Of a DNA stretch of 64,000 nucleotides, positions 3,209 to 36,656 are shown in pieces. The position numbers and the translations under genes were made by a program. Numbering within the stretch: position 1 is the first letter of the stretch; every line of letters begins with the position of its first letter. Where the stretch lies: positions 813,942 to 877,941 of the forward strand of contig JBMOKY010000001.1 in NCBI GenBank assembly GCA_049325535.1, given 5' to 3'. A model generated the notes under the pieces. The model did not search any database, was not told the DNA's origin, and worked only from the letters and a program-made list of their open reading frames with translations. This DNA is from Patescibacteria group bacterium (lineage in GTDB: Bacteria > Patescibacteriota > Patescibacteriia > UBA10025 > JAHIVO01).

Positions 3209-4309
3209 CTACAATCGTCCGCGCTTGATCGCTCCACGCACACGTCGCATCAATTCCAGGTAGAAACTGACATTTTGTAGTGTCGCCAACCGCAGCGCCA
3301 ACGGATCACCAATGGTGAAGAGATGCCTGAGATATGCCCGGGTATACCGGCGGGACGTAATCGCGCTGCTCTGGACATCGATCGGGTGGGTATCCGCCGC
3401 AAATCGCGCTCGTGAAATATGGATCGTGTCATAAAACCTGCCCCGTAGATCAGCGGTACGCCACACATAGATCAGCCCATGACGCGCATTACGCGTGGGA
3501 ATGACGCAATCAAACATGTCGACGCCCCGTCTCACTGCCTCTACTATTTGTTCCGGCTTTCCCACGCCCATCAAGTAGTGTGGCCGTGAATCAGGCAAGT
3601 GCGGTATCGTCACTTCGAGCATAGCATACAGCTGCTCCGCCGGTTCTCCGACCGCCAGACCACCGATGGCAAAACCGTCAAACGGCATACGCGCCAGAGT
3701 CTGGGCATGCGCCGAGCGCAACTCAGGAAACGTAGCACCCTGCACGATACCGAATACCATCTGGTCGGCTATGCGTCGTTTCTTTTTATGAGCGAGCGCA
3801 CGGAGCGCCCACCGGGTCGTCAATTCCATAGAGGTACGAGCATATCCCAGCGTAGTCGGATACGGTGGGCACTCGTCCAGTACCATCATGATGTCTGACC
3901 CGATCGCGCGCTGGATATCGATGGCCTGCTCCGGCGATAAAAAAAGCGAGCGGCCATCTATCTCCGAACTGAAATGCACCCCTTGCTCGGAAATCGTCCG
4001 CCGTTTGCTCAGCGAAAAGACCTGATACCCGCCGGAGTCAGTCAAGATCGGACCGCGCCAGCGCATGTACTGATGCAAGCCTTTGTACTTCCGCAACACT
4101 CCCAGCCCCGGCCGCTGCCACAGATGATAAGTGTTTGCCAGGATGATGTCGGCGTTCAACGAAGTGATATCCTCCGCGCTCAATGTTTTTACCACCCCGC
4201 GGGTAGCGATCGGCATGAATGCTGGCGTGCTGATCATGCCATGCGCTGTGCGCAGCGCACCGACACGAGCCCGGCTCTTCTTGCTCTTTTTGAGTATGCG
4301 AAATGCCAT
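3209..4309 (-). CDS. tgt: Queuine tRNA-ribosyltransferase
   Basis: PAFMPIATRG N-terminus, IMMVLDECPPYP, and MGVGKPEQIVEAVRRGVDMFDCVIPTRNARHG (Tgt signature). Start taken at MAFRILKK (nt 4309) rather than the upstream ATG at 4372. The zinc-site CxCxxC is replaced by QSSAITS (see findings). Confidence 0.85.
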   Translation of the reverse strand: MAFRILKKSKKSRARVGALRTAHGMISTPAFMPIATRGVVKTLSAEDITSLNADIILANTYHLWQRPGLGVLRKYKGLHQYMRWRGPILTDSGGYQVFSLSKRRTISEQGVHFSSEIDGRSLFLSPEQAIDIQRAIGSDIMMVLDECPPYPTTLGYARTSMELTTRWALRALAHKKKRRIADQMVFGIVQGATFPELRSAHAQTLARMPFDGFAIGGLAVGEPAEQLYAMLEVTIPHLPDSRPHYLMGVGKPEQIVEAVRRGVDMFDCVIPTRNARHGLIYVWRTADLRGRFYDTIHISRARFAADTHPIDVQSSAITSRRYTRAYLRHLFTIGDPLALRLATLQNVSFYLELMRRVRGAIKRGRL

Positions 4310-7098: not shown

Positions 7099-7848
7099 TT
7101 ATGCACTCTCGAAAAATGGACGAAATGACAGGTCGGTTTCGGCAATTGCATTGATAAAAAGTGTGGTTATCCGCTCACATTCCTGCGCTACCGCGCTGGG
7201 CATAGTCAAGAGCATTACCCGCTCAATCGGTTGGTGCACCAACTCCCGCAAGAGTTTGACCGTATTTGCCCCGATCGGTACCACATCGATGGCACTGCTG
7301 CATCGAGCATGCGCTACCCCGCCGCGTTTCCAGGAAAATACCACCGCTGATGGAGCCAGCACCTGACGACAGATCACGCACCGATTCACCTCGGGCTGGT
7401 GTCCAACAGCAGAAACGAGCTGCCAGACGAAAAACCATCGGAGTAAAAATAATTGGGCTGGAGTAATTCCAGAAGTATCCAGCCGCTGTAACGCCTGCAG
7501 CACCAGTGCGTAGAGATGCCGATCACGCTGCCGGTCATGCAGCAGACGGTCCAGTAGGGTGGCAATATACCGGGCCAATGCCAAAGCGGCCGGTTCAGCG
7601 TGCAGCCGCCGCCAGGCATCCTGAACCGTGACGTCAGTCACCGTATCCAGACGCGCACCGCGGACGCACTGCACAGTCACCAGTTGAATTGGCTCTAGGC
7701 TTCCCGCCAGTTTACTGCTGATTTTTCGGGTGCCCCGCGCCAATACAGTAATTTTCCCGTATTCCTCGGTATACAGTGTAATAGTGCGATCAACCTCACG
7801 CAGATCATGATGCCGGATAATGATGCCGGTCATCTGATACGTACTCAT
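7099..7848 (-). CDS. recO: DNA repair protein RecO
   Basis: About 249 aa. N-terminal OB-fold-like region (GIIIRHHDLREVDRTITLYTEEYGKITVLARGTRK) and a C-terminal Cys4 zinc motif (CVICRQ...AHARC). Confidence 0.7.
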   Translation of the reverse strand: MSTYQMTGIIIRHHDLREVDRTITLYTEEYGKITVLARGTRKISSKLAGSLEPIQLVTVQCVRGARLDTVTDVTVQDAWRRLHAEPAALALARYIATLLDRLLHDRQRDRHLYALVLQALQRLDTSGITPAQLFLLRWFFVWQLVSAVGHQPEVNRCVICRQVLAPSAVVFSWKRGGVAHARCSSAIDVVPIGANTVKLLRELVHQPIERVMLLTMPSAVAQECERITTLFINAIAETDLSFRPFFESA

Positions 7849-7851
7849 AGA

Positions 7852-10788
7852 TTAGTGTGCTGCTTTGATACCGAACAACAATTTCACACCGCCAATATCC
7901 AGCACTTTTTTCAGATCAATATTTTCTGGGATGCCTTTGAGACATTTACCAGCCAGCACCTCGGCACAGATCTCATCACGATAATGCATCATGATACCCT
8001 CCAAATCGGGATCGCCAATCTCAAAATATATCGTTATGCGATCAGCAATAGTCAAATCGCCATCCTTGCGCAAGGCGTTTAGATGGCGGATAATTTCACG
8101 AGAAATCCCCCGCTGCTTCAATTCATCAGTGATAGTCGTGTCCAGTGCTACCCTCAGAGCCCCCTGCTCCGCTACGACAAATTCGCTGCCAGTGGGCAAT
8201 GTATCTGCGGCGACTGCCGAAACCACATTCAGCTCCTCCTGAATCAGTAACTGCATTTCAGGTGCCAGGGAAGGCGTCTGGATGATGCACTGAGACAGCG
8301 GCTGGCGTACTTTTATCTGCTGCTGTTTACGCAATGAATGGCCCAATTCAACCGCACTCCGTACCAGCTGCATCTCCCGTAACACGGCCTCTCCATTCTC
8401 CGCGGGCATCAGGTTTGGCCAGTCACTGATATGCACACTCGATGTTTCAGAACCGGTTGTCGTCTGATACAGCCACTCGCTAAAAAATGGGGCAAATGGC
8501 GCCAGTAATTTACTCAGGGTCACTAACGTATAGCGGAGCGTCTCCAATGCCGCGATCTGGTCAGGCGCTTGTGGTTTCAGACGTGCCCGGGACCGACGGA
8601 GATACCACGTCGACACATCCTGGATAAAATCAGAAATAGCCCGCGCCGCCTCGGTGACCGCGTACTGGTCCAATGCGGCAGTGACGGTCGCCGCTATCTG
8701 CTGCAGTCGGGCCAGCATCCAGCGATCCAAGACGTGGGTCACAACCGGCACTGCCGGCTCCCCATCGGGTTTTGTGGCATACATCTGCCAAAACGAAACG
8801 ACATTTGCCAGTATCATCCAGTTCTTTCGCACGATGTCGCCGACCTGCTTCTCTTCGAATAATTTTGCTTCGCCCGGCTGATTGACTGTGAAGAGGAACC
8901 AGCGCAATGCGTCCACCCCGTACGTATCCATCATCACAAACGGATCTACTACATTACCTTTGGATTTGGACATCTTCTGGCCCTTGGCATCCAATATATG
9001 TCCCAAACAAATGACATTTTTATATGGCGCTGGTTTATCGAGAAGGGTGGCCACAGCCAGCAAGGTGTAAAACCATCCTCGCGTCTGGTCGACCGCTTCT
9101 GATATATAATCAGCGGGAAAACTCTGGCCGGCATCGACACGCTCAGCATGCTCAAACGGATAGTGCCACTGAGCAAACGGCATGGCGCCAGAGTCAAACC
9201 AGACGTCGGCAACCTCCGGGATGCGATGGTATTCCCTGCCGTCTTTTTCCAGGACAATTTCATCCACAAACGGCCGGTGCGGATCAAACCACTGGTCGAT
9301 AGTATTTGGGTTCTTCGCCAATTCCTTGAGCTCAGCAAATGAACCGACGCACAGATAGTCACCGTCGGCCGATTTCCAGATAGGCAGCGGCGTCCCCCAA
9401 TAGCGTTCGCGGGAAAATGCCCAGTCCTTCAATTCATTCAGCCATTCCCCAAACCGGCCGTGTTTGAAATAATCCGGCACCCAATTGATGTGTTCATTAT
9501 TGGAAATCAGCTGCTGTTTTAGCGCGGTCATTTTGATAAACCAGGAATCCTTCGCATAGTACAGTAGCGGAGTGTCACAGCGCCAGCAAAAAGGATATGA
9601 GTGCTGATAGGGCTCCTCGCGGAACAGACTGCCCCGATCGGACAGATATTTGATCAGCGCACGTTCGACGTCCTTATCTTTTACGAATTTACCGGTAAAA
9701 TCTTTGACGTCTTTGGTAAAAAGGCCATTTTCGTCCACCGTGTGGTGCTGGGGCAACCCCACCGCCATACCGAGCTGATAATCATCTTCGCCGTACATCA
9801 CCGCCGTATGGACTACCCCCGTCCCCTCCTCGGTATTTACGAAATCCGCGGGATAGACGCGATAGGATTTTTCGGAACGCAATGCGTGAATGTCGAACAA
9901 CGGTTCATATTCCATGCCGACCAGATCCGCGCCACGTTTTTCCTCCACCACGCGATACGGCACACCCAAACGCTCCACCACGCTTTTAGCGATGTACAAA
10001 AATTCATGATCAATTTCCACCTTGACGTAATCAATAGTCGGCCCGACCGCCAGCGCCACATTACCCGGCAGCGTCCACGGGGTGGTCGTCCAGGATAATA
10101 TGTAGGTACCGTTCTGATCTTTAACTTTGAATTTAATAAAGACAGAATTGTCCGTCACGGTTTCATACCCCTGAGCCACCTCATGCGATGACAATGCCGT
10201 ACCACAGCGCGGACAATGCGGCACTACTTTGTGTCCCTGATAGAGCAGCCCTTTATCCCAAATTTGCTTGATAATCCACCACAGCGTCTCGATATACTCG
10301 TCCTGATAGGTGATGTACGGATGCTCCAGGTCTAGCCAAAAACCCATGCGCTTGGTCAGCCGCTCCCATTCCTCTTTGTACTGCCAGACCGATTCCTTGC
10401 ATTTCTGATTGAATTCAGCGATGCCGTACTTCTCGATATCCGGCTTGCCGGAAATCCCCAGCTCCTTCTCTACCTGCAGTTCCACAGGTAGGCCGTGGGT
10501 ATCCCAGCCAGCCTTCCGCTCGACAAAAAAACCCTGCATGGTTTTGTAGCGCAGGATGACATCCTTATAGGCGCGCGCCAGCAAGTGGTGGATACCCGGG
10601 CGGCCATTTGCCGTCGGCGGCCCCTCAAAGAAAACAAACGGGCGGCCGTCTGCTGTTCGCCGCAGGCTTTTTTCGAAAATATTCTCCTTTTCCCAAAAGG
10701 CGAGTATTTTCTCTTCTTGCGCAGGGAATGAAACCCGGTTATCTTTGGGGTCACTTTTATTCATAACGTGATTTCCAGTGTACCGCAA
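7852..10788 (-). CDS. ileS: Isoleucyl-tRNA synthetase
   Basis: HIGH-region PTANGRPGIHHLLAR, KMSKS present (KMSKSKGNVVDP), and the IleS-specific WAFSRERYWGTPLPIW block. 978 aa. Confidence 0.95.
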   Translation of the reverse strand: MRYTGNHVMNKSDPKDNRVSFPAQEEKILAFWEKENIFEKSLRRTADGRPFVFFEGPPTANGRPGIHHLLARAYKDVILRYKTMQGFFVERKAGWDTHGLPVELQVEKELGISGKPDIEKYGIAEFNQKCKESVWQYKEEWERLTKRMGFWLDLEHPYITYQDEYIETLWWIIKQIWDKGLLYQGHKVVPHCPRCGTALSSHEVAQGYETVTDNSVFIKFKVKDQNGTYILSWTTTPWTLPGNVALAVGPTIDYVKVEIDHEFLYIAKSVVERLGVPYRVVEEKRGADLVGMEYEPLFDIHALRSEKSYRVYPADFVNTEEGTGVVHTAVMYGEDDYQLGMAVGLPQHHTVDENGLFTKDVKDFTGKFVKDKDVERALIKYLSDRGSLFREEPYQHSYPFCWRCDTPLLYYAKDSWFIKMTALKQQLISNNEHINWVPDYFKHGRFGEWLNELKDWAFSRERYWGTPLPIWKSADGDYLCVGSFAELKELAKNPNTIDQWFDPHRPFVDEIVLEKDGREYHRIPEVADVWFDSGAMPFAQWHYPFEHAERVDAGQSFPADYISEAVDQTRGWFYTLLAVATLLDKPAPYKNVICLGHILDAKGQKMSKSKGNVVDPFVMMDTYGVDALRWFLFTVNQPGEAKLFEEKQVGDIVRKNWMILANVVSFWQMYATKPDGEPAVPVVTHVLDRWMLARLQQIAATVTAALDQYAVTEAARAISDFIQDVSTWYLRRSRARLKPQAPDQIAALETLRYTLVTLSKLLAPFAPFFSEWLYQTTTGSETSSVHISDWPNLMPAENGEAVLREMQLVRSAVELGHSLRKQQQIKVRQPLSQCIIQTPSLAPEMQLLIQEELNVVSAVAADTLPTGSEFVVAEQGALRVALDTTITDELKQRGISREIIRHLNALRKDGDLTIADRITIYFEIGDPDLEGIMMHYRDEICAEVLAGKCLKGIPENIDLKKVLDIGGVKLLFGIKAAH

Positions 10789-18020: not shown

Positions 18021-18560
18021 TTAATACAGCGCGTATTCCCACCCTGGTTGCCACTGCCCGCTCCGGCGCCAGTCTGACTGAATCGCCTCGGGCCAGGATT
18101 TTTTGTTGCATAGAACTTCGAGCGCCAGTTGCGGCGCCTGATGTGCAACTATCGCCACGCGCTTGCCGTCATACCGAACTTTGAGAAATGCCAGTACATC
18201 TGCGACACGCCGCTCGACATCGTGATAACTTTCGCCGTTGGGGAATCCGGTGCTGATGTACCGCTCTAAATCATGTTTGAAGTGGTCGGGCTGGCCGTTC
18301 CACTTCCCATAGTTTGCTTCGCGCAACCGCTTGTCCTGAATTATGTCATAGCGTCCACCAAACGCCAGCCGGGCAGAGTCAACCGCCCGTCTCAAATCAG
18401 AACAGAATACCGCGTCAAACTGCTTACCCTTCGCCATCTCGCCTAATATTCGAGCCTGCTCAACACCGAGTTGCGAAAGCTCGCCAGGCAACCAACCGGT
18501 GGCAATCCCGGCTTCATTATCAGTCGTGGTGCCGTGAACGAAGTAGGTAAGGTGAATCAT
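18021..18560 (-). CDS. Histidine phosphatase family protein (phosphoglycerate mutase-like)
   Basis: N-terminal LTYFVHGTTTDNE (the RHG-type catalytic His motif context). 179 aa. 4-nt overlap with the upstream Nudix gene. Confidence 0.6.
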   Translation of the reverse strand: MIHLTYFVHGTTTDNEAGIATGWLPGELSQLGVEQARILGEMAKGKQFDAVFCSDLRRAVDSARLAFGGRYDIIQDKRLREANYGKWNGQPDHFKHDLERYISTGFPNGESYHDVERRVADVLAFLKVRYDGKRVAIVAHQAPQLALEVLCNKKSWPEAIQSDWRRSGQWQPGWEYALY

Positions 18561-19468
18561 ATCTGTCGACGCTCCTTGGCCATTTCTTTCTCGACCGCGG
18601 CTAATACCTGAGGTAAATCCTTATACACAAAAGAGGTGAACTGCGCTTTATCCTCCTCGCGCAGGCCACGCAACTTCTCCATCGGCCACCATTCGAGGCA
18701 CGTTGCCTTGCCATCTTCGAGCCGCAGCGTATCCGTGCCCTCTCGAAATCGATACAGATACATACAGCGAAATGCATAATTAATCATTCCATTCTTTTGC
18801 TGATTGCTCTGGCGCTTATTTTTATACATGAAAAATAAATCCTCCGGCTGGACCCGTATCCCCGTCTCCTCTTCCATTTCCATAATCGCCGCGCCAAGGT
18901 ATGTCTGGCCGGCGCTCACATGGCCACCCACCGATGTGTCCAGCTTGCCCGGTGCAATATCTTTATCCGGGGCTCGCCGCTGAAGCAGGATATCCCCCTT
19001 CGCATTATAGATAAACACCCCAACCTCCCGGTGGAGCTCGGCATTCATGTGAATTGCATGACGGTCTCCTTGCCCGATGACATGGTCATGCTCATCCACA
19101 ATATCGAGCCGCTCGGAGCTGCCTGATGATCGAGGAAATTTCAAAACCACAACCATGAGGAATACGCCAACCGCCGGCACCAGATACACCAAATCAAACC
19201 AACCCACCTGGTCAGTGATGGTAGTAATGACATTAAACCCGGCAACCACCAGCGCACCCCACCATGCCCAGCGCCGTCCTCGGCCCAAAAAATACGCCAA
19301 CGTGCCGATGAGCAGTGCATTGACCAATCCAACTGCGCTGTATAGGTAGCGGTAATCGGATCCCTGCCAGAGCCACCACGCTGACCAGCCGATCCATAAA
19401 ACAGACACGACATACATCGCCCACAGGGTCACGCGAATTCGTCGAGATGGCGTCTCTTTCATAAAAAC
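18557..19468 (-). CDS. Nudix hydrolase fused to an N-terminal multi-TM domain
   Basis: Nudix box GGHVSAGQTYLGAAIMEMEEETGI. About 120 N-terminal aa form 3-4 TM helices. Start taken at the internal ATG (19468) to avoid overlap with the upstream gene; the ORF track opens at 19492. Confidence 0.6.
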   Translation of the reverse strand, partial: VFMKETPSRRIRVTLWAMYVVSVLWIGWSAWWLWQGSDYRYLYSAVGLVNALLIGTLAYFLGRGRRWAWWGALVVAGFNVITTITDQVGWFDLVYLVPAVGVFLMVVVLKFPRSSGSSERLDIVDEHDHVIGQGDRHAIHMNAELHREVGVFIYNAKGDILLQRRAPDKDIAPGKLDTSVGGHVSAGQTYLGAAIMEMEEETGIRVQPEDLFFMYKNKRQSNQQKNGMINYAFRCMYLYRFREGTDTLRLEDGKATCLEWWPMEKLRGLREEDKAQFTSFVYKDLPQVLAAVEKEMAKERRQI

Positions 19469-19472
19469 CATG

Positions 19473-20084
19473 TTAATGCTCGTTTGAGGCAATCACCGAT
19501 CGTTTGTTTACAAAAAATCCATAATACACCGCAGTGAAATTGAGTACCATGTGCGCTGCTGAAGCGACGATCAAATTGGGGAATACGGAATATAGGGCGC
19601 TGAAACCAAGCCCCGCTACCAGTGCCAGCGGCAGATGCACTCGCCAGTTTCCATAGATGCTATGCATGATGGCAAAAAGAACGGCATTGATGATGACGGC
19701 CGCCCAGACGACGTCAGTCAGCTCAATCAACTGGCGCAGAGAAAATGACATGAACACGTACTGCTGGCCGATGCTGATGGGGATGAACCAATATCGAAAA
19801 TGCGTGTCCTGACGCCAGTCGGTATGGGGCGCCTGACCCAATACCATCGACAGCCAACGCAAAAAAACGCACCCCGTCACCGCAAATATCCCATAGGCCA
19901 ACAGTGTGGCGACTATATAGTCGGTATGGATGCCGATATCGGCCAGGGTGGTGCGTCGAATGAAAAAAACACCGCTGATAGCCAGTACCACCCCGGTAAG
20001 TAGATACCACCGCCACCGAGCGCGGATCATGCCGGAAGTAATCAATGCCAGCGGTAGGATTATCATAAAAACGAATTCGACCAT
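19473..20084 (-). CDS. CPBP-family intramembrane metalloprotease (CAAX protease-like)
   Basis: FxxxH (AVLFAIMHS) and HxxxN (AAHMVLNF) motifs in TM helices. Start taken at MVEFVFMII (20084), adjacent to the upstream stop; the ORF track opens at 20162. Confidence 0.6.
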   Translation of the reverse strand: MVEFVFMIILPLALITSGMIRARWRWYLLTGVVLAISGVFFIRRTTLADIGIHTDYIVATLLAYGIFAVTGCVFLRWLSMVLGQAPHTDWRQDTHFRYWFIPISIGQQYVFMSFSLRQLIELTDVVWAAVIINAVLFAIMHSIYGNWRVHLPLALVAGLGFSALYSVFPNLIVASAAHMVLNFTAVYYGFFVNKRSVIASNEH

Positions 20085-20085
20085 A

Positions 20086-21036
20086 CTACTTATAATACAC
20101 CATTTCAAAGTAACTTGTGGTTGGCGCTGCGGTAGTACCGGCCAGGATGCCGGAATTGGCATGGTGCAGTACGGTATACCCGGTTATTCCTCGCTGAGAC
20201 AGCCAGAAGAGCAGCAGTGCTATCGAGGGCGGCGAATCCAGGTAATCATTGAAGCGCGCGCCAAACGACAAAATAGTCTGGTAGTCGAGCGTCTCCAGAG
20301 CGGCCCGTGTCACATGGTCATGCGCCTCAGCTTCTGGCACTGACAGGTAATGGGAAAAATCGACGGCCGCCACGACTACGGTTTGATCATCGAAGTGCTG
20401 ATCCAGCAGCGCCACCAGCCGCTGCAGCTCCGGCAGCCGCAATTCCGCTTTCAGAATAACCGGTACGACGGTCGTTCCGGGCAAGTAATGACCAATAAAT
20501 GGCATGATGGCTGATACCGAATGCTCATTGACCGCTACGTGATCATTGGCCAAGGCATATCCCCCGTCAACCAGCGCCTGAACCAATCCTTGATCGGCTT
20601 CGACGAGCCCATTTGCCGTTTTCCAGGAAGCGGCCGTGGTCTGCACCAAACCGCTGCCGACCTCGTGGTGATTCGGTCCGATCAGAATGATACGCTGGGG
20701 CTGCTGCGACTGCAACCCCTGAAAAAAATGGGCGATATACTCCCCGCGGGTAAAATCATGGGGGATAATGGCACCCAGTACTTTTTTTTCCGGAAACGCC
20801 GGCCCGAGCTGAATCGCCCGCTCTACCGAACGCTGGAACTGATTTGGGTAGTAGTACGGCGTTTCCAGAATGCGTACTGATTGCGGTCTGTTCATCTTCG
20901 GATTACCAGCATCAACCGTACTGATGATGGTACTGCTGATGGCGACGATGCCCGGCAGGGCGATGGCCAGCACCACGATGAAGTGCCAGCGTTTCAGTGT
21001 GCGGCTATTCGATGGTGACGCTGGTGGATGTGCCAT
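20086..21036 (-). CDS. MEMO1-family (UPF0103) protein with N-terminal signal anchor
   Basis: AIIPHDFTRGEYIAHFF and ILIGPNHH motifs resemble the MEMO1/AmmeMemoRadiSam protein B family. 316 aa. Confidence 0.45.
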   Translation of the reverse strand: MAHPPASPSNSRTLKRWHFIVVLAIALPGIVAISSTIISTVDAGNPKMNRPQSVRILETPYYYPNQFQRSVERAIQLGPAFPEKKVLGAIIPHDFTRGEYIAHFFQGLQSQQPQRIILIGPNHHEVGSGLVQTTAASWKTANGLVEADQGLVQALVDGGYALANDHVAVNEHSVSAIMPFIGHYLPGTTVVPVILKAELRLPELQRLVALLDQHFDDQTVVVAAVDFSHYLSVPEAEAHDHVTRAALETLDYQTILSFGARFNDYLDSPPSIALLLFWLSQRGITGYTVLHHANSGILAGTTAAPTTSYFEMVYYK

Positions 21037-24000
21037 AATTCACACTGGAGCGCACCACGAATCCCTGCACCACCGGCGCATCGGCAGTAAAGGTACCCTT
21101 GCCAGTCACCAGGGCGTAGTAATAAAACTCCTGGGACGTCCGGCCGGTCCAAAATTTTACCGCCTGACCATTGACCTCGTAGGGATACCGGTACAACTGT
21201 TCATACGGTACATTTCGAGAAGAAAGATTGGACAGCAGTTTCAAACCGGCCGGCAGATAATCGGTCACCTGATACTCCGTATCCAGAGCACCGCTGCTGA
21301 TTGACGGTTTCAGTGTCACCCGGACGATATCATTTGCCCGGAATATCGTCGTTGGTTGACCATTGACGGTGTACTCCCGCGTGATGCTCAGATTCGCATC
21401 AGTGAGCGCCGATGCAGGGTCGACCGGCTGTTGGTAGGAGCTTATCACTCCGACTTCGCCCTCGATACCGCTGAACGTGATGGCCGAGAGCTGTTCTGGG
21501 GTTACTGACAGTGCATAGGTATCTGCATCTTCCAGAATAACTGATTTTGTCTCCCCATCAAGCGTATAGCTGAAACGTACCGGATCTCCGCTCAAAAGCG
21601 GTACTGCCGTCTGAATATACGCCAGCTGATCGATCGTATGCAGCGTCAGATTAGCCGGATGCGCCAGCGCGTATTGATACAGTTTTGGAGCCTCTTCCGA
21701 GGACACTGCCGCAGCGAGCACGGCCGCCTGGTACGTATACTCAGTATAGTCATCCTGGGTAGTGCCGAGCTGGACTTCGATATACGGATCAGCAGCATGG
21801 CCGTGCTCATTCAAGACCTCTTGCAGCAGGGTAGCGGCATACTCGGAAGCACCGAGCTGAGCCACCGCCCGTGCCAGATACAGCTTCAGCTCTGCGGAAA
21901 CATCGTGGTGTGCCATGAAAATATTGATATCAGTCAGTACGGGCTCACCGAGATTTGCCAATCCCAGCAAAGCATAGACAATCTCATCGGTGTTACTCTG
22001 GCGGTTATTGAGCACGCTGTAGAAATAATCACGGCCGGCAATCGCATCAAACAACCCAGGTGCCACTCCAAATGTCTTCGCGGTGGTCAATAACTCAGCC
22101 GATGAATAGGGCAAGAGGGATATGCCACCCTCAGGCAATTGGTAATCGGTAAAGGTGATGGCCGGAAGCGTGCCGTCTTCGCCGAAATACTCATTCAGCA
22201 GCGATTGAGCCTGATACCGTCCGAGCTGTTGCTCAATCCGGTCGCCGTACGACCAGATCAGCGCCTGCAGATCACGGTAAAACTGGCCCCGTTCGAGATT
22301 GGTAAAGACCAGGGATGTGCGGCGGTCCGCGCTACCGGAGAGCGGGGCGGCTGGTTCCAGCCGATAATACTGCGTCGTACCGACGGTGATATGGGAATCA
22401 TGGTACTGCATGGTTTTGATCACAGCATCGGTAGAGCTCCCCTGTTTTCCTTCCACGCGGATCTGATGGGTGCCCGCCGGAAAATCCGGGAGTCCCACCG
22501 CCACGGTGTCCTGGGCACCCGCTGAACGGGTAATCACATCCTCAGAGAATCCGGGAAACGTGATGGTATAGGTCACCGCCGTATCTGGATCGACCGCCCG
22601 ACCGAAACTCCGCAGCAGCACCTGTGGCGCGTCCCCCACCACATAGTCCCCGGCTACCGCCACGTCCACGAAATACGGCTGAGTGGCGATGAGTGCGGTT
22701 TGCGCGGCTTGTGCCTGCAGATCCTTGGTCAACGCATGTACGGTAGTCTGCCAGGACGTAATATTGTCCGGCAGCTTAAACGTAACCGAGGCGTTTCCGG
22801 ATCGGTCAGTGGTGGTGCTGCCGAAATACGCGATGTCCTGAAAATTCTGGCGGCCACCACCCTTTTCATTGTGTACGTAGATGCCGTCCGCGATGAAAGT
22901 ATGGTACGGTTCGGTAGTCAGATTGTATACGTCAATCTGATGATACTGACGGATAATCGAATGAATCACCACGCGACTGCCCTGCTGGTCGATGAGCCAG
23001 TCTCCGACCCGTGCGCTGCCGATCGTCTGCCACGACCCATTCAGCAAAACGACATGTTCCGGCGTGACGCGCAGGGAACCATTGATCACCAGATATTCCG
23101 CCACGCGGTGCTCAAATGTATTGGTGACGGTGGCACTGACCAGTTCATCGCTCCCGACCGCCGGATGCGTGGCCACTGAATCACCGATCCGAATCTCCCC
23201 AATGTGTTTGGTCGTGCCATCTGCCATGAGGATGGTGGTATCGCCGCTGAAACAGCCTCCCCCCTCGGCCATGGCATTCAGCTCTGCTTTATGCGTCTGG
23301 TATGAATACACAATCGGTGATGGTAAATACTGATACAGCGTACTCAACACCTCTGCAGGATTTGCCCACTGGATGGCGGTCAGCGCCTCGTCGATGGCGG
23401 ACACATTGACCGTCGCGGTCACGGGATTATTGGCAGAGTCAGTCACATGAATATCCAGAGTCACATCTTCACCCGGACGATACGCCGGCTGATCCGGCGA
23501 CAACTGAATCTGCAGAGCTTTCAGACTCCGATCATAGTTCAGTTGTAGACCGTCAGTCAGGGCATACCCCCGACCGTCAAAATAGAGTCCATATACGTAG
23601 ATATTTGGGGCATAGCTCTCCCGAAACGTAAATGACATGCCCGGCTGATTGGTAGGATAGAGGTCAAACAGGTTGGTCTGACCTTTGAAGAAGAGGATGT
23701 TTTTTTCCTGAGTGGCACCGACTATTTCATCATTCCGGTACAGAGATACCGCCACATTATCTCCGGGTCGAAAATCGCCTATGCCGCTCTCGTCCTGAGC
23801 GTCCACGGCCACATGATACTGGACAAATCCCTGCGAAGCCGCCCAGTAGTCCCATGACCCCTGGTATAAGTACGAGGTCGAGGTGGCCTCCCGGCCATCA
23901 GGATCGGTGACGCGGACTTCGATACGATAATTCTGATCAGCTGCCGGCTGAAAACCGGCAGTATAGGCACCGTCAGTGTTGGTTACTGCCGAGAGGGTGG

Positions 24001-26440
24001 CAATTTCATCCGAGTGTGACTGATAATCATAAGTTTTATACGTTTTTTTGCTGATGATGTCATAGCGTGTACCGGTTTCCGTCTTGGTATAGTATTCGTG
24101 GAATACCGTCATGGCTATAGCGGCATTAGGAATAGGATCGCCCTCATATTCCCAAGAAAATTCATCAGCAGCGGCATTGATCGTTTCTAAATCAATCGCA
24201 TGTACCGAGCCCGATACAAAGCCTTCCTGGTTCACGCTACTATCCACGGTATAGCGAGGACCAAATGAATAAATGTACGCATCGGTATAGATGCCGGACA
24301 ATTCGGCATTGGTCGGATGCACGGAGAAATATTCATACTCCGGATAATACCCCCCGCTGTAGCTCGTGCCCAGCACTACCCGTGCCGTGCCATCCGCATC
24401 GGTCGTCACTGTGCCGGTGCCCAGCGCTCCCGTATACTGCAGCTCCAGATTACCCACCGGCGTCCCATCATAAAACATGGCGGTGATGTCAAAGATAGCG
24501 TCTTCCCCTTCGAATATCGCTTTCTTTGGCGTCGACACTTCAATTTTATACGCAGGCTTCGTATAGGTGGCCACCTCCACATACTGTGACAGTATTTCAG
24601 TGCCGTCTACGGTGACACCCAAACGATAACTGCCCGGATTGAGGTGACGATAGTCGATCGACCCCTCATACGTCCCGTAGTCAGACACCGGTACTTCCTG
24701 AGTAGCGATGATTTCATCCTCCATCGACGTGTAATAATTGGCACTTTTCGTAAACGTGATGGTCGCCGCCTGTGGCCCGCGAACATCCGCCCGGGGGCGG
24801 ATGACCCCCCAAAACTTCACGCTGTCGTCCGGCGAGTAGAGTGTCCGATTGGTATACAGATACGTCCAGTAGTCCCGCGAAGCATTATTCATGAACCCAT
24901 TAAACTCATAGTGCGGAATCACAGGCACCAGTAGGTCGCCACGCTCGGTATGGACGGTAAAAAAACTGGCGGCGAGTGGTGCGTCGGATGACCGGTCAGC
25001 GATGTCCGATGGCGTAGCAAAAGAAGCTAAGCCGTCACGGTCAGTCTCCGCGCTGAATGCCGCATCGCCGGAATATCCGATCGAGGCGTCACTGACCGGC
25101 GCCTGCGTACCGAGATCATGTACCCAGATAAACGAATTGTCGGGGCTGGATTGATAGCTGGCGGTCAGCTGCCCCACCTGCAGAAATGCCTGGGCTTTTG
25201 TGTCGCCATAGGGTACCTGAACCAGATAGTACCCGGCCGGCAGAGCTTCCGGGAATTCAATGTATTGGAAATAATCAGATGATTTCTTTTCCGCGTCAAA
25301 AGTTGCCTGGAGCGTCAGTGAATCCGTGGCATACGGATGCGTACGCCAGGCATACGCCGCCCAATACGGCAAGCTGGCGAACGACTGTACGGCATCGGTA
25401 AATTCGCGGAATGAAGTAAATGCATATACCTGAACCGGAATGGCGGTCAGCCCGGAATTATATTCACTCACGGTCATGACCGGCGCTTCAGAAGACGGAT
25501 ACTCAAAAAATTCCTTAGTAAAATCAAAATACCCATACGACTCTTGAGATTGATCAGTTTCGAACTGAAACTGGTAATCAGCAACCAGGGTGTCGTCGCT
25601 CCCGTCCAATGGCAGTCCGGCCCGTACCGTGACAGTGTAGACGGTCATGGGTGCCAAGCTATCGGGCACAAATACCAGCGTTTTGCGGTATTGCTCAAAA
25701 CGCCCACTCACCGCCGGCGAGATGGATACATACTGCTCATACTCCCGGAAATTTTCATGGGAAAAAGTAATCTCGATGCCAGAGTCACGCGGCACGGTGG
25801 TTGCCTGATCCCGCGGCACGGTGGACATTACTTTAAACGTGTCCTTGGTCTGATAGGCCCACTGATACTCACGTTTCTGTTCATCCCCAACCGTCTGTGC
25901 GACCATGCTGAATTGATAAATTGTACCATCGTCCAGCGGTTGACTCGGGGTAATGGTAAACGTATTTGTATCAGAAGAATGCACCGCGTAGGCAATGGCG
26001 GGCTCGATCTGCAAATTACCCTCCACGGTGGCTACGTCAATTGGCAGTGAGCTGGTCAAGGTAAATGAGGTGGCGGTATCCACGCCCAGAATATCTCCTG
26101 AATCCGCCGACAGCTTCAGCTGCACGTCCGCATCAGTGAGAATGACCGGGATAGTCCGGGTATCCGAAATCGACTCGGGCCCAAACCAGACATACCCAAA
26201 CAATCCACAGGCGACCAGGGCGGCGAGCGAGGATAGAACGATTAATGACCGTTTCATAGACATGGGAATAAATGATAAAAATGCTGGCTGGTCAATCTCC
26301 TGCGGCGATTGACGACGTTGCATTTCCGACGCGGCGATCAGGCGCGCCCTGATCCGTCGGCTGGCTGCATCGTCCATCGTCGGCGGGGTGCCATGATGTA
26401 ACAGCCGTTTGACACTATGGATATCGAAAGGGGTTTTCAT
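21005..26440 (-). CDS. Giant (1811 aa) membrane-anchored MG-domain/alpha-2-macroglobulin-like surface protein containing an internal Hint domain
   Basis: Cytoplasmic N-terminus of about 65 aa, then a TM helix (LIVLSSLAALVACGLFGYVWF), then a long array of Ig/MG-like segments. A2M-domain-like LPDNITSWQTTVHA motif is present. A TED-like helical region (LLGLANLG...) lacks the GCGEQ thioester. A Hint domain lies at residues 1063-1191. The start overlaps the ECF sigma stop (ATGA). Confidence 0.7.
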   Translation of the reverse strand: MKTPFDIHSVKRLLHHGTPPTMDDAASRRIRARLIAASEMQRRQSPQEIDQPAFLSFIPMSMKRSLIVLSSLAALVACGLFGYVWFGPESISDTRTIPVILTDADVQLKLSADSGDILGVDTATSFTLTSSLPIDVATVEGNLQIEPAIAYAVHSSDTNTFTITPSQPLDDGTIYQFSMVAQTVGDEQKREYQWAYQTKDTFKVMSTVPRDQATTVPRDSGIEITFSHENFREYEQYVSISPAVSGRFEQYRKTLVFVPDSLAPMTVYTVTVRAGLPLDGSDDTLVADYQFQFETDQSQESYGYFDFTKEFFEYPSSEAPVMTVSEYNSGLTAIPVQVYAFTSFREFTDAVQSFASLPYWAAYAWRTHPYATDSLTLQATFDAEKKSSDYFQYIEFPEALPAGYYLVQVPYGDTKAQAFLQVGQLTASYQSSPDNSFIWVHDLGTQAPVSDASIGYSGDAAFSAETDRDGLASFATPSDIADRSSDAPLAASFFTVHTERGDLLVPVIPHYEFNGFMNNASRDYWTYLYTNRTLYSPDDSVKFWGVIRPRADVRGPQAATITFTKSANYYTSMEDEIIATQEVPVSDYGTYEGSIDYRHLNPGSYRLGVTVDGTEILSQYVEVATYTKPAYKIEVSTPKKAIFEGEDAIFDITAMFYDGTPVGNLELQYTGALGTGTVTTDADGTARVVLGTSYSGGYYPEYEYFSVHPTNAELSGIYTDAYIYSFGPRYTVDSSVNQEGFVSGSVHAIDLETINAAADEFSWEYEGDPIPNAAIAMTVFHEYYTKTETGTRYDIISKKTYKTYDYQSHSDEIATLSAVTNTDGAYTAGFQPAADQNYRIEVRVTDPDGREATSTSYLYQGSWDYWAASQGFVQYHVAVDAQDESGIGDFRPGDNVAVSLYRNDEIVGATQEKNILFFKGQTNLFDLYPTNQPGMSFTFRESYAPNIYVYGLYFDGRGYALTDGLQLNYDRSLKALQIQLSPDQPAYRPGEDVTLDIHVTDSANNPVTATVNVSAIDEALTAIQWANPAEVLSTLYQYLPSPIVYSYQTHKAELNAMAEGGGCFSGDTTILMADGTTKHIGEIRIGDSVATHPAVGSDELVSATVTNTFEHRVAEYLVINGSLRVTPEHVVLLNGSWQTIGSARVGDWLIDQQGSRVVIHSIIRQYHQIDVYNLTTEPYHTFIADGIYVHNEKGGGRQNFQDIAYFGSTTTDRSGNASVTFKLPDNITSWQTTVHALTKDLQAQAAQTALIATQPYFVDVAVAGDYVVGDAPQVLLRSFGRAVDPDTAVTYTITFPGFSEDVITRSAGAQDTVAVGLPDFPAGTHQIRVEGKQGSSTDAVIKTMQYHDSHITVGTTQYYRLEPAAPLSGSADRRTSLVFTNLERGQFYRDLQALIWSYGDRIEQQLGRYQAQSLLNEYFGEDGTLPAITFTDYQLPEGGISLLPYSSAELLTTAKTFGVAPGLFDAIAGRDYFYSVLNNRQSNTDEIVYALLGLANLGEPVLTDINIFMAHHDVSAELKLYLARAVAQLGASEYAATLLQEVLNEHGHAADPYIEVQLGTTQDDYTEYTYQAAVLAAAVSSEEAPKLYQYALAHPANLTLHTIDQLAYIQTAVPLLSGDPVRFSYTLDGETKSVILEDADTYALSVTPEQLSAITFSGIEGEVGVISSYQQPVDPASALTDANLSITREYTVNGQPTTIFRANDIVRVTLKPSISSGALDTEYQVTDYLPAGLKLLSNLSSRNVPYEQLYRYPYEVNGQAVKFWTGRTSQEFYYYALVTGKGTFTADAPVVQGFVVRSSVNYGTSTSVTIE
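22868..23254 (-). other. Hint / bacterial intein-like (BIL) domain embedded in the giant protein
   Basis: 129 aa. Block A CFSGDTTILMADG has Cys1; block B is RVTPEHVV (TxxH); the C-terminus is YNLTTEPYHTFIADGIYVHN. The next residue is Glu, not C/S/T. The domain is flanked by GGG on both sides. Confidence 0.75.
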
Positions 26441-33582: not shown

Positions 33583-33607
33583 GTCCATGGTGTAGCCCGG
33601 TTAACCC
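33583..33607 (+). repeat. Partial duplicate of the tRNA-Asp 5' region (acceptor 3'-part and D-arm); tRNA remnant
   Basis: ccatggtgtagcccggttaac matches positions 4-24 of the downstream tRNA-Asp. No T-arm or acceptor complement follows. Confidence 0.4.
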
Positions 33608-33675: not shown

Positions 33676-33750
33676 GGGCCCATGGTGTAGCCCGGTTAAC
33701 ACGCCTCCCTGTCACGGAGGAGATCAGGGGTTCAAATCCCCTTGGGCCCG
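33676..33750 (+). tRNA. tRNA-Asp (anticodon GTC)
   Basis: Cloverleaf folded by hand: acceptor GGGCCCA/UGGGCCC, D-stem GUGU/ACAC, anticodon stem CCUCC/GGAGG with loop CUGUCAC, T-arm AGGGG-UUCAAAU-CCCCU, discriminator G. CCA is not encoded. Confidence 0.85.
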
Positions 33751-33892
33751 CTCTGAACCGTAGAATTACTCCCTGCCCGCCCTCGCGAGTACCGGCATTT
33801 TTTTTGAATTGACAAAACACCCCACCAATACTAAGGTAACGTAATTCAAAACAAAGACTCAAACAGTTCACCATCAAAAAACGAGGTTTATC

Positions 33893-34978
33893 ATGGACGC
33901 AACCACACTTGGACAAAAGATCCAGGAACATCCAGAAGCAACCGGATTCATCGGTCTTCCCGCTGCGCCGTGCAAGTATGGCGAAAATGCCTGGCAGGCA
34001 CCGGCGCGTCTGATGCGGTTTCTCGATGAACAGGCTGCCGCAGATCCACTGACGCTCGACAAATTCACCCTCCTGGCCGGAACCGACCCGAGCTACAATA
34101 ACTTTTGTGATCTCGACCGTCTCCTGCAGACGACGACGCATATCGCGGCCGGTTTCGACGTCAACTTCCAGTACGTTCCAGCGATCGCCGTAGCCGTCAA
34201 ACACGGAAACGCATGCGGCGCCAGCGTCGGTGATGATCACGTCACCGTGCTGCAGAAAGTCGTCATGGGTGACCCGCGGGCGATATTCGGCGGGCTGGTC
34301 ATGGTTAATTTCCCCATCGGGGAAATCGAGGCTGAAGTGCTCCTATCGTATGGTACCGCCGGTGGCCGCCGACTGCTGGACGGAATCGTCGCTCCGGACT
34401 TCTCGCCCGAGGCCGTCAGCATGTTGTCCCGGAAAAAGGATAAATGCCGTTTCCTGCAGAACTCCGCGCTGGCACGGCTGAGCCAGAACTCTCTCGATGC
34501 GCGCCTGCGCTTCCGATACGTCCGCGGGGGGTGGCTGGAACAGCCGAACTACACCTACATTTTCAGCTTCAATCATCCCAATCTGGAAATCAATGGGGTG
34601 CTCAGCCAGCAGGAAATGACCGACCTGGTGCTGGGCTGGGCGATCAATGCCACCAGCAACTCGAACACCATCACGCTGACCAAAGACGGCATGCTGATCG
34701 GCAACGGCACCGGCCAGCAGGATCGCGTCAGCGCCGCGGAGCTGGCGATCAGAAAAACGGTGGATGCGCACCATACGACGTTCAAGGCAGTCGCGATCAG
34801 CGACAGCTTCTTCCCATTCACGGATGGACCCGAACGTCTGTGCGTAGCCGGCGTATCAGCCATTTTGACCACCTCCAGCTCGGTAGCGGACGAAAAAGTC
34901 CGTGAGACCATCATGAACCGCGGGGTGGCACTGGCGTGGCTGCCCGATGCCGATGGCCGTGGTTTCTACGGGCATTAA
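33893..34978 (+). CDS. purH: AICAR transformylase domain protein (PurH C-terminal domain only, no IMP cyclohydrolase/MGS domain)
   Basis: VKHGNACGAS (the KHxNPCG-like motif) and AISDSFFPFTDG (SDAFFPF) are AICARFT signatures. At 361 aa the protein covers only the transformylase half of bifunctional PurH. Confidence 0.7.
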   Translation: MDATTLGQKIQEHPEATGFIGLPAAPCKYGENAWQAPARLMRFLDEQAAADPLTLDKFTLLAGTDPSYNNFCDLDRLLQTTTHIAAGFDVNFQYVPAIAVAVKHGNACGASVGDDHVTVLQKVVMGDPRAIFGGLVMVNFPIGEIEAEVLLSYGTAGGRRLLDGIVAPDFSPEAVSMLSRKKDKCRFLQNSALARLSQNSLDARLRFRYVRGGWLEQPNYTYIFSFNHPNLEINGVLSQQEMTDLVLGWAINATSNSNTITLTKDGMLIGNGTGQQDRVSAAELAIRKTVDAHHTTFKAVAISDSFFPFTDGPERLCVAGVSAILTTSSSVADEKVRETIMNRGVALAWLPDADGRGFYGH

Positions 34979-35010
34979 TCCTGACTCTCCTCGCGCTGTT
35001 CGCTCTCACT

Positions 35011-35044
35011 GGCGGCCTGCTCTACCCAGGCCGCCATTTTTATT
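35011..35044 (+). terminator. Rho-independent terminator after the purH-like gene
   Basis: ggcggcct-gctctaccc-aggccgcc followed by atttttatt. Confidence 0.55.
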
Positions 35045-35141
35045 GACTAAAATTAACTAAATTGGTAAGGTGCTCAAACGAAAACAGATACTAAAAAAAT
35101 TACAAAACCGTTCACTACTAAACCAAGAAGGAGGTGTGCAA

Positions 35142-36656
35142 ATGCGCACGCTCACCGACACCCGGCCGTGGAATATCCCGGCCGAATTCCCGCTCACCCA
35201 GGGCAAAGTCCGCGACGTCTATGACCTCGGGGACGAACTCCTCATCATCGCCACCGATAGGCTCTCGGCCTTCGATGTGGTGCTACAGGAATCGCCAATC
35301 CCAGGTCGTGGAATTGTTCTCACCCAGATGACAATCCACTGGCTCAATGTCCTGAAGGACGCAAGTGCAAGCGTCAATTCACCGATCCCGGTCGTTCATC
35401 ACCTGGTTTCAACCGATGTCGCCGACTTGCCGGATGCCTTCCAGCCGTTTGCTGCGGATCTCGAGGGCCGCTTTATGCTCGTCAATACGTGTGAAGCGCT
35501 CTGGATTGAAATGATCGTCCGGGGATTTATCTCTGGATCGCTCTGGAAAGAATACGCATCCGCAAGCGCCACTGGACCGGTAGTACTCCTCTCCGGCCAT
35601 GAGTTACCCGTTGGCCTGGTGGAGTCCCAGGAATTCCCGCAGGCCATCTTCACGCCATCCACCAAGGCGCCGCAAGGCGAACACGATATTAATATCTCAT
35701 ACGATGAGATGGTCGAGTCGCTCCGATCCGGCCTGGCTGAGCGTGATATCGATCTCGATGCAGAGACACTGGCCGCGGCTTGCCGTGACCTGTCGCTGAC
35801 CCTCTACACCGCCGGCCGGGACTACGCCCGCGAGCGCGGCATCATCATCGCCGACACGAAATTCGAATTCGGTCTGCGACTGATTGACGGCATCTGGCAC
35901 TTGGTCATCATCGACGAAGTGCTAACGCCTGACTCATCCCGCTTTTGGCCCGCCGACGAATACGAGGCAGGTCGCAGCCAGAATAGTTTCGACAAACAGA
36001 TTGTCAGAGACTATCTGGCCAAGAATCTGAAGTGGAATAAGCAGCCGCCAGTACCGGTATTACCGGCCGAAATCATCGAAAAAACGGCCAGCCGCTACCA
36101 CGATTGCGCGGAGAAACTGGGTATCGAGCTGTCGGCACTACGGCTGAATGTCACCGTCCTCTTCGGCAGTAAAAATGATCTGGACGAGGACATGCGGAAA
36201 GCCATCCGAGATGCTCGAGAGGCCTGGTGTTTTGATGGGCCGTTCCATACCATCGACGTGCATGTGATGAGCGTACACCGGAATACACCCATATGCATAG
36301 CCCTAGCTGCAAACGAGCTCGAGGGAGTCAGTCTGGATGATATCGATATCATCATCGCCGCGGCTGGTTGGGCCAACCAGTTGGCGGGTATGATGGCAGC
36401 CTTCCTCCACCATAACGGCCGGAAGATTCCGGTCATTGGCCTGGCTATCGGCACCCCCGGGACCAAGGAATTCGACGCGGCACGACTGTCGATCGAGTGT
36501 CTGCCTGGCAAACCGGTCATCCTCGATCCGAGTGGTAATGCCTATGCCAACGCTACTGGTATGAGGGATATTTTCCTCCGGCTGGCGACAGAACCGTTGC
36601 CGCAGGCAAAACCGTATGTCGAAAAACCGGTCGAACTCTACGTCGAGATCGATTGA
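35142..36656 (+). CDS. purC: Fused SAICAR synthetase (PurC) plus PurE-like AIR carboxylase/mutase domain
   Basis: N-terminal GKVRDVYDLGDELLIIATDRLSAFDVVL is the PurC signature. The C-terminal roughly 170 aa carry PurE-like blocks (FGSKNDLDEDM; VMSVHRNTP vs SAHRTP; AAAGWANQLAGMMAA vs AGGAAHLPGMVAA; PVIGLAIG vs PVIGVP). A strong SD AAGGAGGTG lies 6 nt before the ATG at 35142; the ORF track begins at 35070. Confidence 0.75.
   Translation: MRTLTDTRPWNIPAEFPLTQGKVRDVYDLGDELLIIATDRLSAFDVVLQESPIPGRGIVLTQMTIHWLNVLKDASASVNSPIPVVHHLVSTDVADLPDAFQPFAADLEGRFMLVNTCEALWIEMIVRGFISGSLWKEYASASATGPVVLLSGHELPVGLVESQEFPQAIFTPSTKAPQGEHDINISYDEMVESLRSGLAERDIDLDAETLAAACRDLSLTLYTAGRDYARERGIIIADTKFEFGLRLIDGIWHLVIIDEVLTPDSSRFWPADEYEAGRSQNSFDKQIVRDYLAKNLKWNKQPPVPVLPAEIIEKTASRYHDCAEKLGIELSALRLNVTVLFGSKNDLDEDMRKAIRDAREAWCFDGPFHTIDVHVMSVHRNTPICIALAANELEGVSLDDIDIIIAAAGWANQLAGMMAAFLHHNGRKIPVIGLAIGTPGTKEFDAARLSIECLPGKPVILDPSGNAYANATGMRDIFLRLATEPLPQAKPYVEKPVELYVEID

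Follow-up and report, generated by a model that had tools for sequence, protein, structure and literature searches.

A PurC–PurE-type fusion gene in a Patescibacteria genome and the divergent PurE clade to which it belongs

A gene that joins PurC, the synthetase for 5-aminoimidazole-4-(N-succinylcarboxamide) ribonucleotide (SAICAR), to a PurE-like domain was found in the genome of a Patescibacteria group bacterium. It lies in a stretch of 64,000 nucleotides (contig JBMOKY010000001.1, positions 813,942 to 877,941), which is referred to below as the window. The two domains occur in one gene in the order known from the animal enzyme PAICS, as the initial annotation of the sequence had claimed; a single open reading frame (ORF) and two Pfam domains bear this out. 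The PurE-like half, termed PurE' here, belongs to a clade that appears to derive from class I PurE. The protein is probably, with a probability of about 0.65, a bifunctional enzyme in which the formation of carboxyaminoimidazole ribonucleotide (CAIR) by PurE' is coupled to SAICAR synthesis by PurC. We infer catalytic activity and channelling of the fusion protein from the architecture, fold, conservation pattern, gene linkage and phylogeny described below.

Steps 6 and 7 of purine synthesis are a classic point of difference between microbes, which use PurK and a class I PurE, and animals, in which a class II PurE is fused to PurC. The difference has been pursued as an antibiotic target. Bacteria of the candidate phyla radiation (CPR) type were long thought unable to make purines.

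The fusion gene and its two halves

The longest ORF begins with a GTG and extends over 35070..36656 on the plus strand, and no stop codon or frameshift separates the PurC and PurE-like halves. Separate, neighbouring purC and purE' genes are present in two of the loci compared (loci and proteins carry L and P numbers, here L068 and L008), as might be expected if a sequencing or assembly error had joined two adjacent genes or if the contig were chimeric. Such an artefact is nevertheless extremely improbable. A protein from an independent Logan assembly (P0001) is identical to the window protein except at one residue. The closest full-length relative, P0002, has 513 residues with 56% identity and is encoded on contig L001, which is syntenic with the window (SmpB–IF3–L35–L20–PurH–fusion). 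The same architecture is found in L002, L005 and L066 and in 34 full-length database clusters, and because all of these share it the fusion is taken to be real rather than a product of assembly or frameshift; the concern that these might be two separate genes is thereby answered. There is no discontinuity in GC content, overall or at third codon positions (GC3), across the purC–purE' junction, and the full-length AlphaFold2 (AF2) model of the 504-residue protein is confident, with a predicted local distance difference test score (pLDDT) of 94.0 and a predicted template-modelling score (pTM) of 0.87.

As judged by profile, conserved columns and model, the N-terminal half is predicted to be a bona fide PurC (EC 6.3.2.6). 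Residues 18-302 match Pfam SAICAR_synt (PF01259) with E=2.9e-60 and 204 bits (cut-off 20), and the NCBIfam PurC equivalog NF010568 gives 327 bits (cut-off 251). All 19 columns that are invariant over 56 PurC-containing sequences are retained, among them G21, K22, E123, R127, T171, K175, D182, D238, K240, E242, D258, D264, R267, D284, K285 and R289. The best Foldseek match is yeast Ade1 (1obg; 40% identity, template-modelling score normalised to the target, TMt, 0.85), followed by Mycobacterium abscessus PurC, and TMt values against solved SAICAR synthases are 0.83-0.87.

The motifs quoted in the initial annotation for the C-terminal half were all recovered: GSKND at residues 342-346, SVHRNTP at 377-383 and AGWANQLAGM at 408-417. 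When the C-terminal 170 residues were checked against PurE profiles, Pfam AIRC (PF00731) matched residues 337-446 at 35 bits (35-38 bits), which passes the gathering cut-off of 30. The model of this half built from the family alignment has a pLDDT of 94.6 and a pTM of 0.89. Its best matches in the Protein Data Bank (PDB) by Foldseek are the class I PurE structures 3kuu and 3oow (probability 1.0), with template-modelling (TM) scores of 0.56-0.66 that are moderate because the C-terminal third of the domain differs. LarB structures form a second tier of matches (E~1e-4, TM 0.53).

The PurE' family, its class and its active site

The family was recovered only by exhaustive HMMER and profile searches; the C-terminal domain by itself gave no match in a word-indexed homology search, and a search for loci with a two-sequence alignment returned mostly canonical PurE loci with AGM or AGW 70s loops. 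The HMMER scan covered 1.84 billion cluster representatives and gave 126 hits, of which 118 clusters were kept after scoring with a family hidden Markov model (HMM). PurC lies N-terminal to PurE' in 45 of the 118 (34 of them full-length, at least 450 residues), so the rarity of a bacterial fusion implied by the initial annotation did not hold up. Another 59 clusters look like complete stand-alone proteins of 150-230 residues, and one, P0211, has the domains in reverse order. The bacterial proteins are already known under generic database names ('AIR carboxylase family protein' or 'NCAIR mutase'), and the combination of domains is known from animals. Members are Patescibacteria wherever they are labelled: L002 and P0146 as 'Patescibacteria group bacterium', P0247 as 'Candidatus Falkowbacteria'. 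The stand-alone Patescibacteria 'AIR carboxylase family proteins' (P0146, L008, L013, L046, L067 and L068) share the clade and the motifs of the window domain and lie beside purC, purB or guaA; they differ from it in being separate genes, for proteins of 160-190 residues.

Trees were built by neighbour joining from Kimura-corrected p-distances with 100 bootstraps. The PurE' clade was monophyletic with respect to class I sequences in 100/100 bootstraps, on a long branch; a phylogeny of the C-terminal domain had been proposed as a check, and this was its outcome. The window domain scores 172 bits to the family HMM, falls inside the clade and shares its motifs S-x-H-R-N, VIG(V/L)A and SI..(L/V)PG.(P)V and a C-terminal tail rich in proline and lysine. 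The motifs of the family as a whole are GSxSD; S-C/I/V-H-R-N-P/T; AG-(K/M/W)-A-x-x-L-P-G; (I/V)PV(I/V)G(V/L)A; AAxLSIxx(L/V)PGxPV. Its distinctive C-terminal tail reads G-E-(L/F)-P-P-x-K-P-R-x-x-K-P-A. Two subfamilies can be told apart. Members of subfamily A have SCHRNP and AG(K/M)AAALPG and are fused or stand-alone, and those of subfamily B, monophyletic in 96% of bootstraps, have S(I/V)HRNT and AGWANHLTG and are stand-alone. In the window domain the 40s loop (SVHRNT) and the 70s loop (AGWANQLAG) are B-like, and a third loop, SIECLPGKPVI, is A-like.

Class I PurE is a homo-octamer in which each active site is assembled from three protomers. The window domain resembles this class (TIGR01162; E. 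coli 1qcz/1d7a, 3kuu, 3oow) in fold, in the P-loop G-S-x-x-D, in the S-x-H-R of the 40s loop, in the (I/V)PV(I/L)G(V/L) strand and in the (M/L)PG-PV loop, and class I is its best match in both sequence and structure. His45-Arg46, Ser43 and the P-loop residues Ser16 and Asp19 are kept, and Ser18 is replaced by Asn. In contrast, it has AGWANQLAG in place of AGGAAHLPG, and the region past the PG-PV loop and the C-terminal tail (family consensus GELPPxKPRxxKPA) differ; it is fused to PurC, and no purK was seen nearby. The PurE equivalog TIGR01162 gives only 30.5 bits against a cut-off of 149.6, in line with the earlier description of this part as divergent.

The suggestion in the initial annotation that the domain is class II-like was not supported. 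At E<0.1 the isolated domain matched only class I PurE chains among PDB sequences (best 3ors, 2.7e-5). A profile of 32 family sequences matched class I PurE structures at 4e-20 to 6e-16, that is, down to about 1e-20, but class II Treponema denticola PurE (3rg8) at only 1.8e-6, over positions 10-88 alone, and PAICS at 3.5e-5 to 1.2e-4. Human class II PurE has Lys after the catalytic His (PMC10484210), whereas the window has His-Arg. The class II 70s loop, AGRSNGLGP, is likewise absent, only N74 and L76 being common to both, and class II membership was rejected. What the domain shares with the class II enzyme is this Asn74 and Leu76, a basic or large residue (Lys) in many family members at the position of class II Arg72, and possibly independence of PurK. 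From the proximity to class I in profile and fold, the His-Arg pair, the long separate branch and the lack of both loop signatures, PurE' is assigned as class I-derived but distinct, and as neither class II-like nor related to the PAICS domain.

PurE proteins that fit neither class have been described before. Brown et al. (2011; PMC3261824) reported archaeal class I-like PurE without purK and an unclassifiable halobacterial PurE, and a high-CO2 route or non-enzymatic formation of N5-carboxyaminoimidazole ribonucleotide (N5-CAIR) was proposed for such archaeal proteins (PMC3261824). PurE' is like these in not fitting either class consensus or in possibly functioning without a purK gene. They differ in belonging to other lineages and in not being fused to PurC, and the methanogen proteins are PurE-PurE' tandems. 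Two loci in metagenome-assembled genomes (MAGs) of Phycisphaerae (L007 3978-4538 and L009 9935-10489) encode an otherwise canonical PurE with the 70s loop AAGMSNALAG and SAHRNP. Their loop resembles class II AGRSNGLGP and may represent another intermediate type.

With respect to the active site, seven columns of the domain are invariant over 32 aligned members: G17, S18, D21, S52, R55, A122 and P130. Six of these correspond to G15, S16, D19, S43, R46 and P111 of E. coli PurE, by alignment to a sequence whose numbering reproduces the published His45 and His75. In PurE these residues keep the phosphate and ribose in place and lie next to the catalytic His (PMC10484210; E. coli and Acetobacter aceti structures). 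Of the 111 scorable members, 102 (92%) have the equivalent of His45. Seven members have Asp45 instead: P0002 (L001 5884-7425), P0164, P0175, P0190, P0198, P0213 and P0214. All seven also have Arg75, which occurs in none of the 102 His45 members, and in the tree they fall on three or more distinct branches. This repeated, coupled change suggests selection on a working active site, that is, compensation rather than decay. At position 75 the family has A in 60 members, H in 29, Q in 13 and R in 7. The residues that made the window domain look degenerate are recurrent in the family (N18 in 14 members, W72 in 28 of 118, N74 in 23, Q75 in 13), A77 being found in 2, and the ligand-holding residues are invariant over the 32 members. 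The idea of a degenerate module was therefore not sustained.

A non-catalytic PurE' could still serve PurC as an oligomerisation scaffold or as a nucleotide-sensing regulatory domain. A pseudoenzyme of this kind would account for the low PurE equivalog score, the altered 70s loop and the loss of the catalytic His in P0002 and six other members, and PAICS, too, is built around the PurE octamer as its structural core (PMC10484210). It is unlikely, however, as the invariant columns are ligand-binding rather than surface positions, His45 is so widely kept, and each change of His45 to Asp is paired with a gain of Arg75 on several branches. Moreover, stand-alone copies exist, and these carry a pur-type promoter-like element.

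Very unlikely is a different reaction of the PurE/LarB superfamily unrelated to CAIR, such as a LarB-like carboxylation or hydrolysis or the decarboxylation of another nucleotide. The second-tier LarB fold match, a 19-bit LarB match of one family member and an orotidine monophosphate (OMP)-decarboxylase-like gene adjoining purE' in L046 would be in its favor. On the other side, the window protein did not match the LarB model NF033503 (cut-off 175 bits) and its neighbours are pur genes, with neither larC nor larE found in the surroundings; the gene is regularly linked with, or fused to, purC, purB and purH, and the PurE-type ribonucleotide pocket is conserved.

Purine gene linkage and proposed function

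Linkage was established from HMM scans of all fetched loci, Pfam domain tables and additional Pfam scans. In nearly every CPR-type locus with readable neighbours purE' adjoins purC or is fused to it. The two are fused in the window, L001, L002, L005 and L066; they follow each other as separate genes, purC first, in L008 (8 bp gap) and L068 (157 bp); the order is purE' then purC in L003, L004, L013, L046 and L067. A purH or purV gene is adjacent in the window, L001, L002, L065 and L067, and purB in L005, L006, L008, L046 and L065. In L066 the fusion has folD and glyA nearby, and in L062 the stand-alone purE' has guaA as its neighbour. By this linkage purE' appears to belong to a purH/purV–purC–purE'–purB(–guaA) module.

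Two of these loci have features of their own. In L046, from Parcubacteria bacterium DG_74_1, the OMP-decarboxylase-family gene (9188-9973, plus strand; 49 bits) lies between purB and the purE'–purC pair, the cluster order being guaA-like, purB, OMPdecase-like, purE', purC. In L065 (9249-10744, plus strand) purC is present as two short ORFs, followed by a purE' of 247 residues with a PurC-like N-terminal extension, which may reflect a fusion disrupted by a frameshift, or recoding. A pair consisting of a reverse transcriptase and bAvd, retroelement-like and of the diversity-generating type, lies 8 kb away (18401-19819).

In the proposed mechanism, PurE' would bind aminoimidazole ribonucleotide (AIR) in the standard PurE pocket and make CAIR, with His379 and Arg380 acting as the counterparts of E. 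coli His45 and Arg46. The long-form PurC half would then ligate aspartate to CAIR with ATP to give SAICAR, and PurB together with PurV or PurH, which are encoded nearby in relatives (PurV directly 5' here), would continue towards inosine monophosphate (IMP). The fusion would set the labile CAIR beside its consumer and favor hand-over, as in animal PAICS, for which such a hand-over has been argued (PMC8988938).

The substrate of PurE' may be N5-CAIR, supplied by a PurK encoded elsewhere or non-enzymatically, or AIR plus CO2. No purK, and none of the upper-pathway genes purF, purD, purN, purL and purM, was found either in the 64 kb of the window or in the CPR neighbourhoods inspected, about 15 in number. 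When nearly all non-overlapping ORFs of at least 150 residues in the window were scanned with Pfam, no ATP-grasp/PurK, canonical PurE or further pur gene was detected. The ORF that recurs beside canonical purE in the fetched loci encodes PurD, not PurK. An E. coli PurK sequence matched nowhere, in a search with no positive control. Because purK is absent from every neighbourhood inspected, we lean slightly to independence of PurK.

The bifunctional enzyme proposed here overlaps, except on dependence on PurK, with the most serious alternative. In this view the divergence of PurE' is only apparent and the domain works as an ordinary N5-CAIR mutase of class I, a purK elsewhere supplies N5-CAIR, and the fusion is an accident of gene order that became fixed. 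The alternative is a real possibility, although not the one that we favor. The 40s loop has His-Arg, the profile match to class I is stronger than that to class II by at least 14 orders of magnitude, class I PurE gives the best fold matches, and the view of purK is limited to 64 kb and the neighbourhoods. Against it stand the long branch that sets the PurE' clade apart from class I in all bootstraps, a family without Gly72, mostly without His75 and with its own C-terminal tail motif, and the lack of purK in the window and the CPR neighbourhoods. Furthermore, the fusion has arisen repeatedly and is present in 45/118 clusters, which argues against an accident.

Several observations weigh against a bifunctional enzyme. 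The AIRC match spans only positions 2-95 of the 148 in the profile, about two thirds of the model, and the TIGR01162 score stays below the equivalog cut-off also for the isolated domain (33.4 bits). Similarity to solved PurE structures is moderate, and the C-terminal third deviates. The class I 70s-loop signature with Gly72, His75 and Pro77 is absent, and P0002, the closest full-length relative, has Asp for the catalytic His. The missing purK and upper-pathway genes count here as well. Lastly, a literature search, with incomplete coverage, found no paper on a bacterial PurC-PurE fusion, on PurE' members or on CPR purine synthesis.

A more far-reaching proposal is speculative and, we think, improbable in its entirety. 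PurE' could be a third functional class of PurE, derived from class I and independent of PurK, by direct carboxylation of AIR or by spontaneous formation of N5-CAIR in CO2-rich anoxic habitats. It would use two interchangeable active-site arrangements, His45 or Asp45 with Arg75, and several separate fusions to PurC would have served the hand-over of CAIR. The lower half of purine synthesis would then be a self-contained module made up of PurE', purV/purH, purB and guaA, under its own promoter or operator and possibly fed by an imported aminoimidazole intermediate.

Origin of the fusion, surrounding features and significance

The window protein resembles metazoan PAICS (PDB 2h31, 6yb8, 4ja0) in having PurC N-terminal and a PurE fold C-terminal on one chain, for consecutive steps around CAIR, and the Foldseek alignment extends over both domains (about 475-485 columns). 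Since this alignment has a root-mean-square deviation of 17-19 Å (TM 0.35-0.50 for the monomer model), domain order is shared but the geometry predicted for the monomer appears to differ. The PurE half matches class I PurE much more closely than it does the class II domain of PAICS and has His-Arg instead of His-Lys, and the PurC half is of the bacterial long form, with the 40% identity to yeast Ade1 given above.

In the PurC tree 100/100 bootstraps place the window protein and P0002 with P0003 and P0004, two stand-alone PurCs. This group lies inside canonical bacterial PurC, to the exclusion of the PurC halves of other fusions, in 91/100; the PurC halves of the main fusion type formed a single clade in only 1/100. 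The PurE half falls in the Patescibacteria-labelled clade. As both halves nest in bacterial clades, the fusion arose independently of PAICS and the likeness is a case of convergence; a link with PAICS by descent was not supported.

The closest relatives of the two halves differ. For the PurE' half of the window protein the nearest relative is the PurE' of L002, at 52% identity and as sister in 73-75% of bootstraps; the PurC halves of these two proteins share only 36% identity. The window PurE' has only 31-35% identity with the PurE' of P0002, L067 and L068. The stand-alone purE' genes of L067 and L068 were considered as direct ancestors of the window domain and rejected (0/100 bootstraps; 31-35% compared to 52% with L002). 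The locus of P0003 is fully syntenic with the window (GT4–ArgRS–SmpB–IF3–L35–L20–PurH–purE'–purC), with purE' as a separate gene upstream of purC. The window protein is therefore a mosaic whose PurC and PurE' halves have separate histories. It reflects either the replacement of one half in an older fusion or a second fusion event that involved a different partner. P0211, a metagenome protein of 455 residues, has a subfamily-B PurE' N-terminal and PurC C-terminal (TIGR00081, 88 bits), an independent fusion in the opposite order. The different histories of the halves and the existence of P0211 indicate that fusion or re-fusion happened more than once, giving the main type, the window type and P0211.

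The features of the fusion gene and its immediate surroundings are listed in Table 1.

Table 1. Coordinates in the window of the fusion gene, its domains and loops, and the features 5' of it
Feature	Position	Strand	Basis or remark
Promoter-like element TTGAC-N18-TAAGGT, second copy, 5' of purV	33809..33837	+	pattern match
purV, putative formyltransferase-only PurH for 5-aminoimidazole-4-carboxamide ribonucleotide (AICAR), 361 residues, without IMP cyclohydrolase/MGS domain	33893..34978	+	directly 5' of fusion gene
Strong terminator-like hairpin (10 bp, 8 GC) and T-run, between purV and fusion gene	35010..35036	+	
Promoter-like element TTGAC-N18-TAAGGT, 5' of fusion gene	35043..35071	+	pattern match
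Putative ribosome-binding site GGAGG	35130..35134	+	7 nt 5' of ATG 35142; read from sequence
purC–purE' fusion gene	35142..36656	+	single ORF, 504 residues plus stop, two Pfam domains
SAICAR synthetase (PurC) domain, long-form type, residues 18-302	35193..36047	+	PF01259, NF010568, Foldseek, invariant columns
PurE-like (AIRC-fold) domain, residues 337-504	36150..36653	+	PF00731, AF2, Foldseek, clade membership
P-loop GSKND (equivalent of E. coli PurE G15-D19)	36165..36179	+	G, S, D invariant in family; N18 in 14/107 members
40s loop SVHRNT (equivalent of E. coli S43-A44-H45-R46), putative catalytic His379, Arg380	36270..36287	+	S, R invariant; H in 102/111
70s loop AAAGWANQLAGM (equivalent of E. 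coli A68-M79), without class I Gly72, His75, Pro77	36357..36392	+	motif table

Directly upstream of the fusion gene the window has smpB, tmRNA, infC, rpmI, rplT, tRNA-Asp and then purV, and L002 has the same synteny (IF3…purH–fusion). The name purV follows the nomenclature of PMC6486802. The product matches PF01808 with E=3.2e-42 over profile positions 76-311 only, and the PurH model NF002049 over positions 202-500. At the same position L001 and L067 encode a PurH of 573 residues with a Pfam-called MGS/IMP-cyclohydrolase domain, and L002 has an ORF of about 544 residues, for which no domain scan was made. For the last step to IMP, the 64-kb window yielded neither a purJ nor a purO candidate.

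The promoter-like element has the form TTGAC-N16-18-TAAGGT(A..TAAT), also written TTGAC-N17-TAAGGTAnnTAAT, with an A-rich leader of some 55 nt after it. The pattern matches twice in 64 kb, compared to 0.05 matches expected by chance, both about 55-70 nt upstream of a start codon. Copies are found in L001 5' of purH and the fusion gene (3929-3957, 5789-5817), in L067 5' of purH, purE' and purC (5394-5422, 7257-7285, 7905-7933) and in L068 5' of the stand-alone purE' (1134-1162). In these four related genomes, that of the window included, it occurs only before pur genes and not before the adjacent translation genes, and it may be a pur-specific promoter or operator. Because it precedes pur genes including stand-alone purE', purE' looks like part of a small pur regulon. 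A search of Rfam revealed no riboswitch, such as ZTP, 5' of the pur genes; only tmRNA and a tRNA were found.

Elsewhere in the window, Pfam identified housekeeping ORFs for IleRS, ArgRS, RecO, TGT, GlmS, GlnA, FBA, GlpX, ComEC, RF, FtsZ/FtsA, NrdR and cell-surface proteins. An exact 21-nt copy (CCATGGTGTAGCCCGGTTAAC) of the 5' part of tRNA-Asp (33680-33700; gene 33676-33751) is present on the plus strand 95 nt upstream, at 33585-33605, and may be the remnant of an integration or duplication event. On the minus strand, 21005-26440 encodes an alpha-2-macroglobulin-like protein of 1811 residues (Big_5, MG2, A2M_BRD, A2M). A Hint/PT-HINT domain, intein-like or pretoxin-like, is inserted between its bait-region and A2M domains at residues ~1061-1190.

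The fusion is a member of a sizeable PurE clade rather than a single odd gene, and it is less exotic than a PAICS in a bacterium. The family is now defined for annotators, whose current equivalog models miss it. If the fusion protein is active, an animal-like fusion has arisen independently from a class I-derived domain, which would indicate that selection for hand-over of CAIR, rather than historical accident, lies behind the fusion. PurE chemistry would then have more than two solutions, and the Asp45/Arg75 variant would be a natural experiment on the catalytic histidine. CPR/Patescibacteria would also keep a dedicated and apparently co-regulated lower purine pathway, and the family could show how these tiny bacteria make purines.

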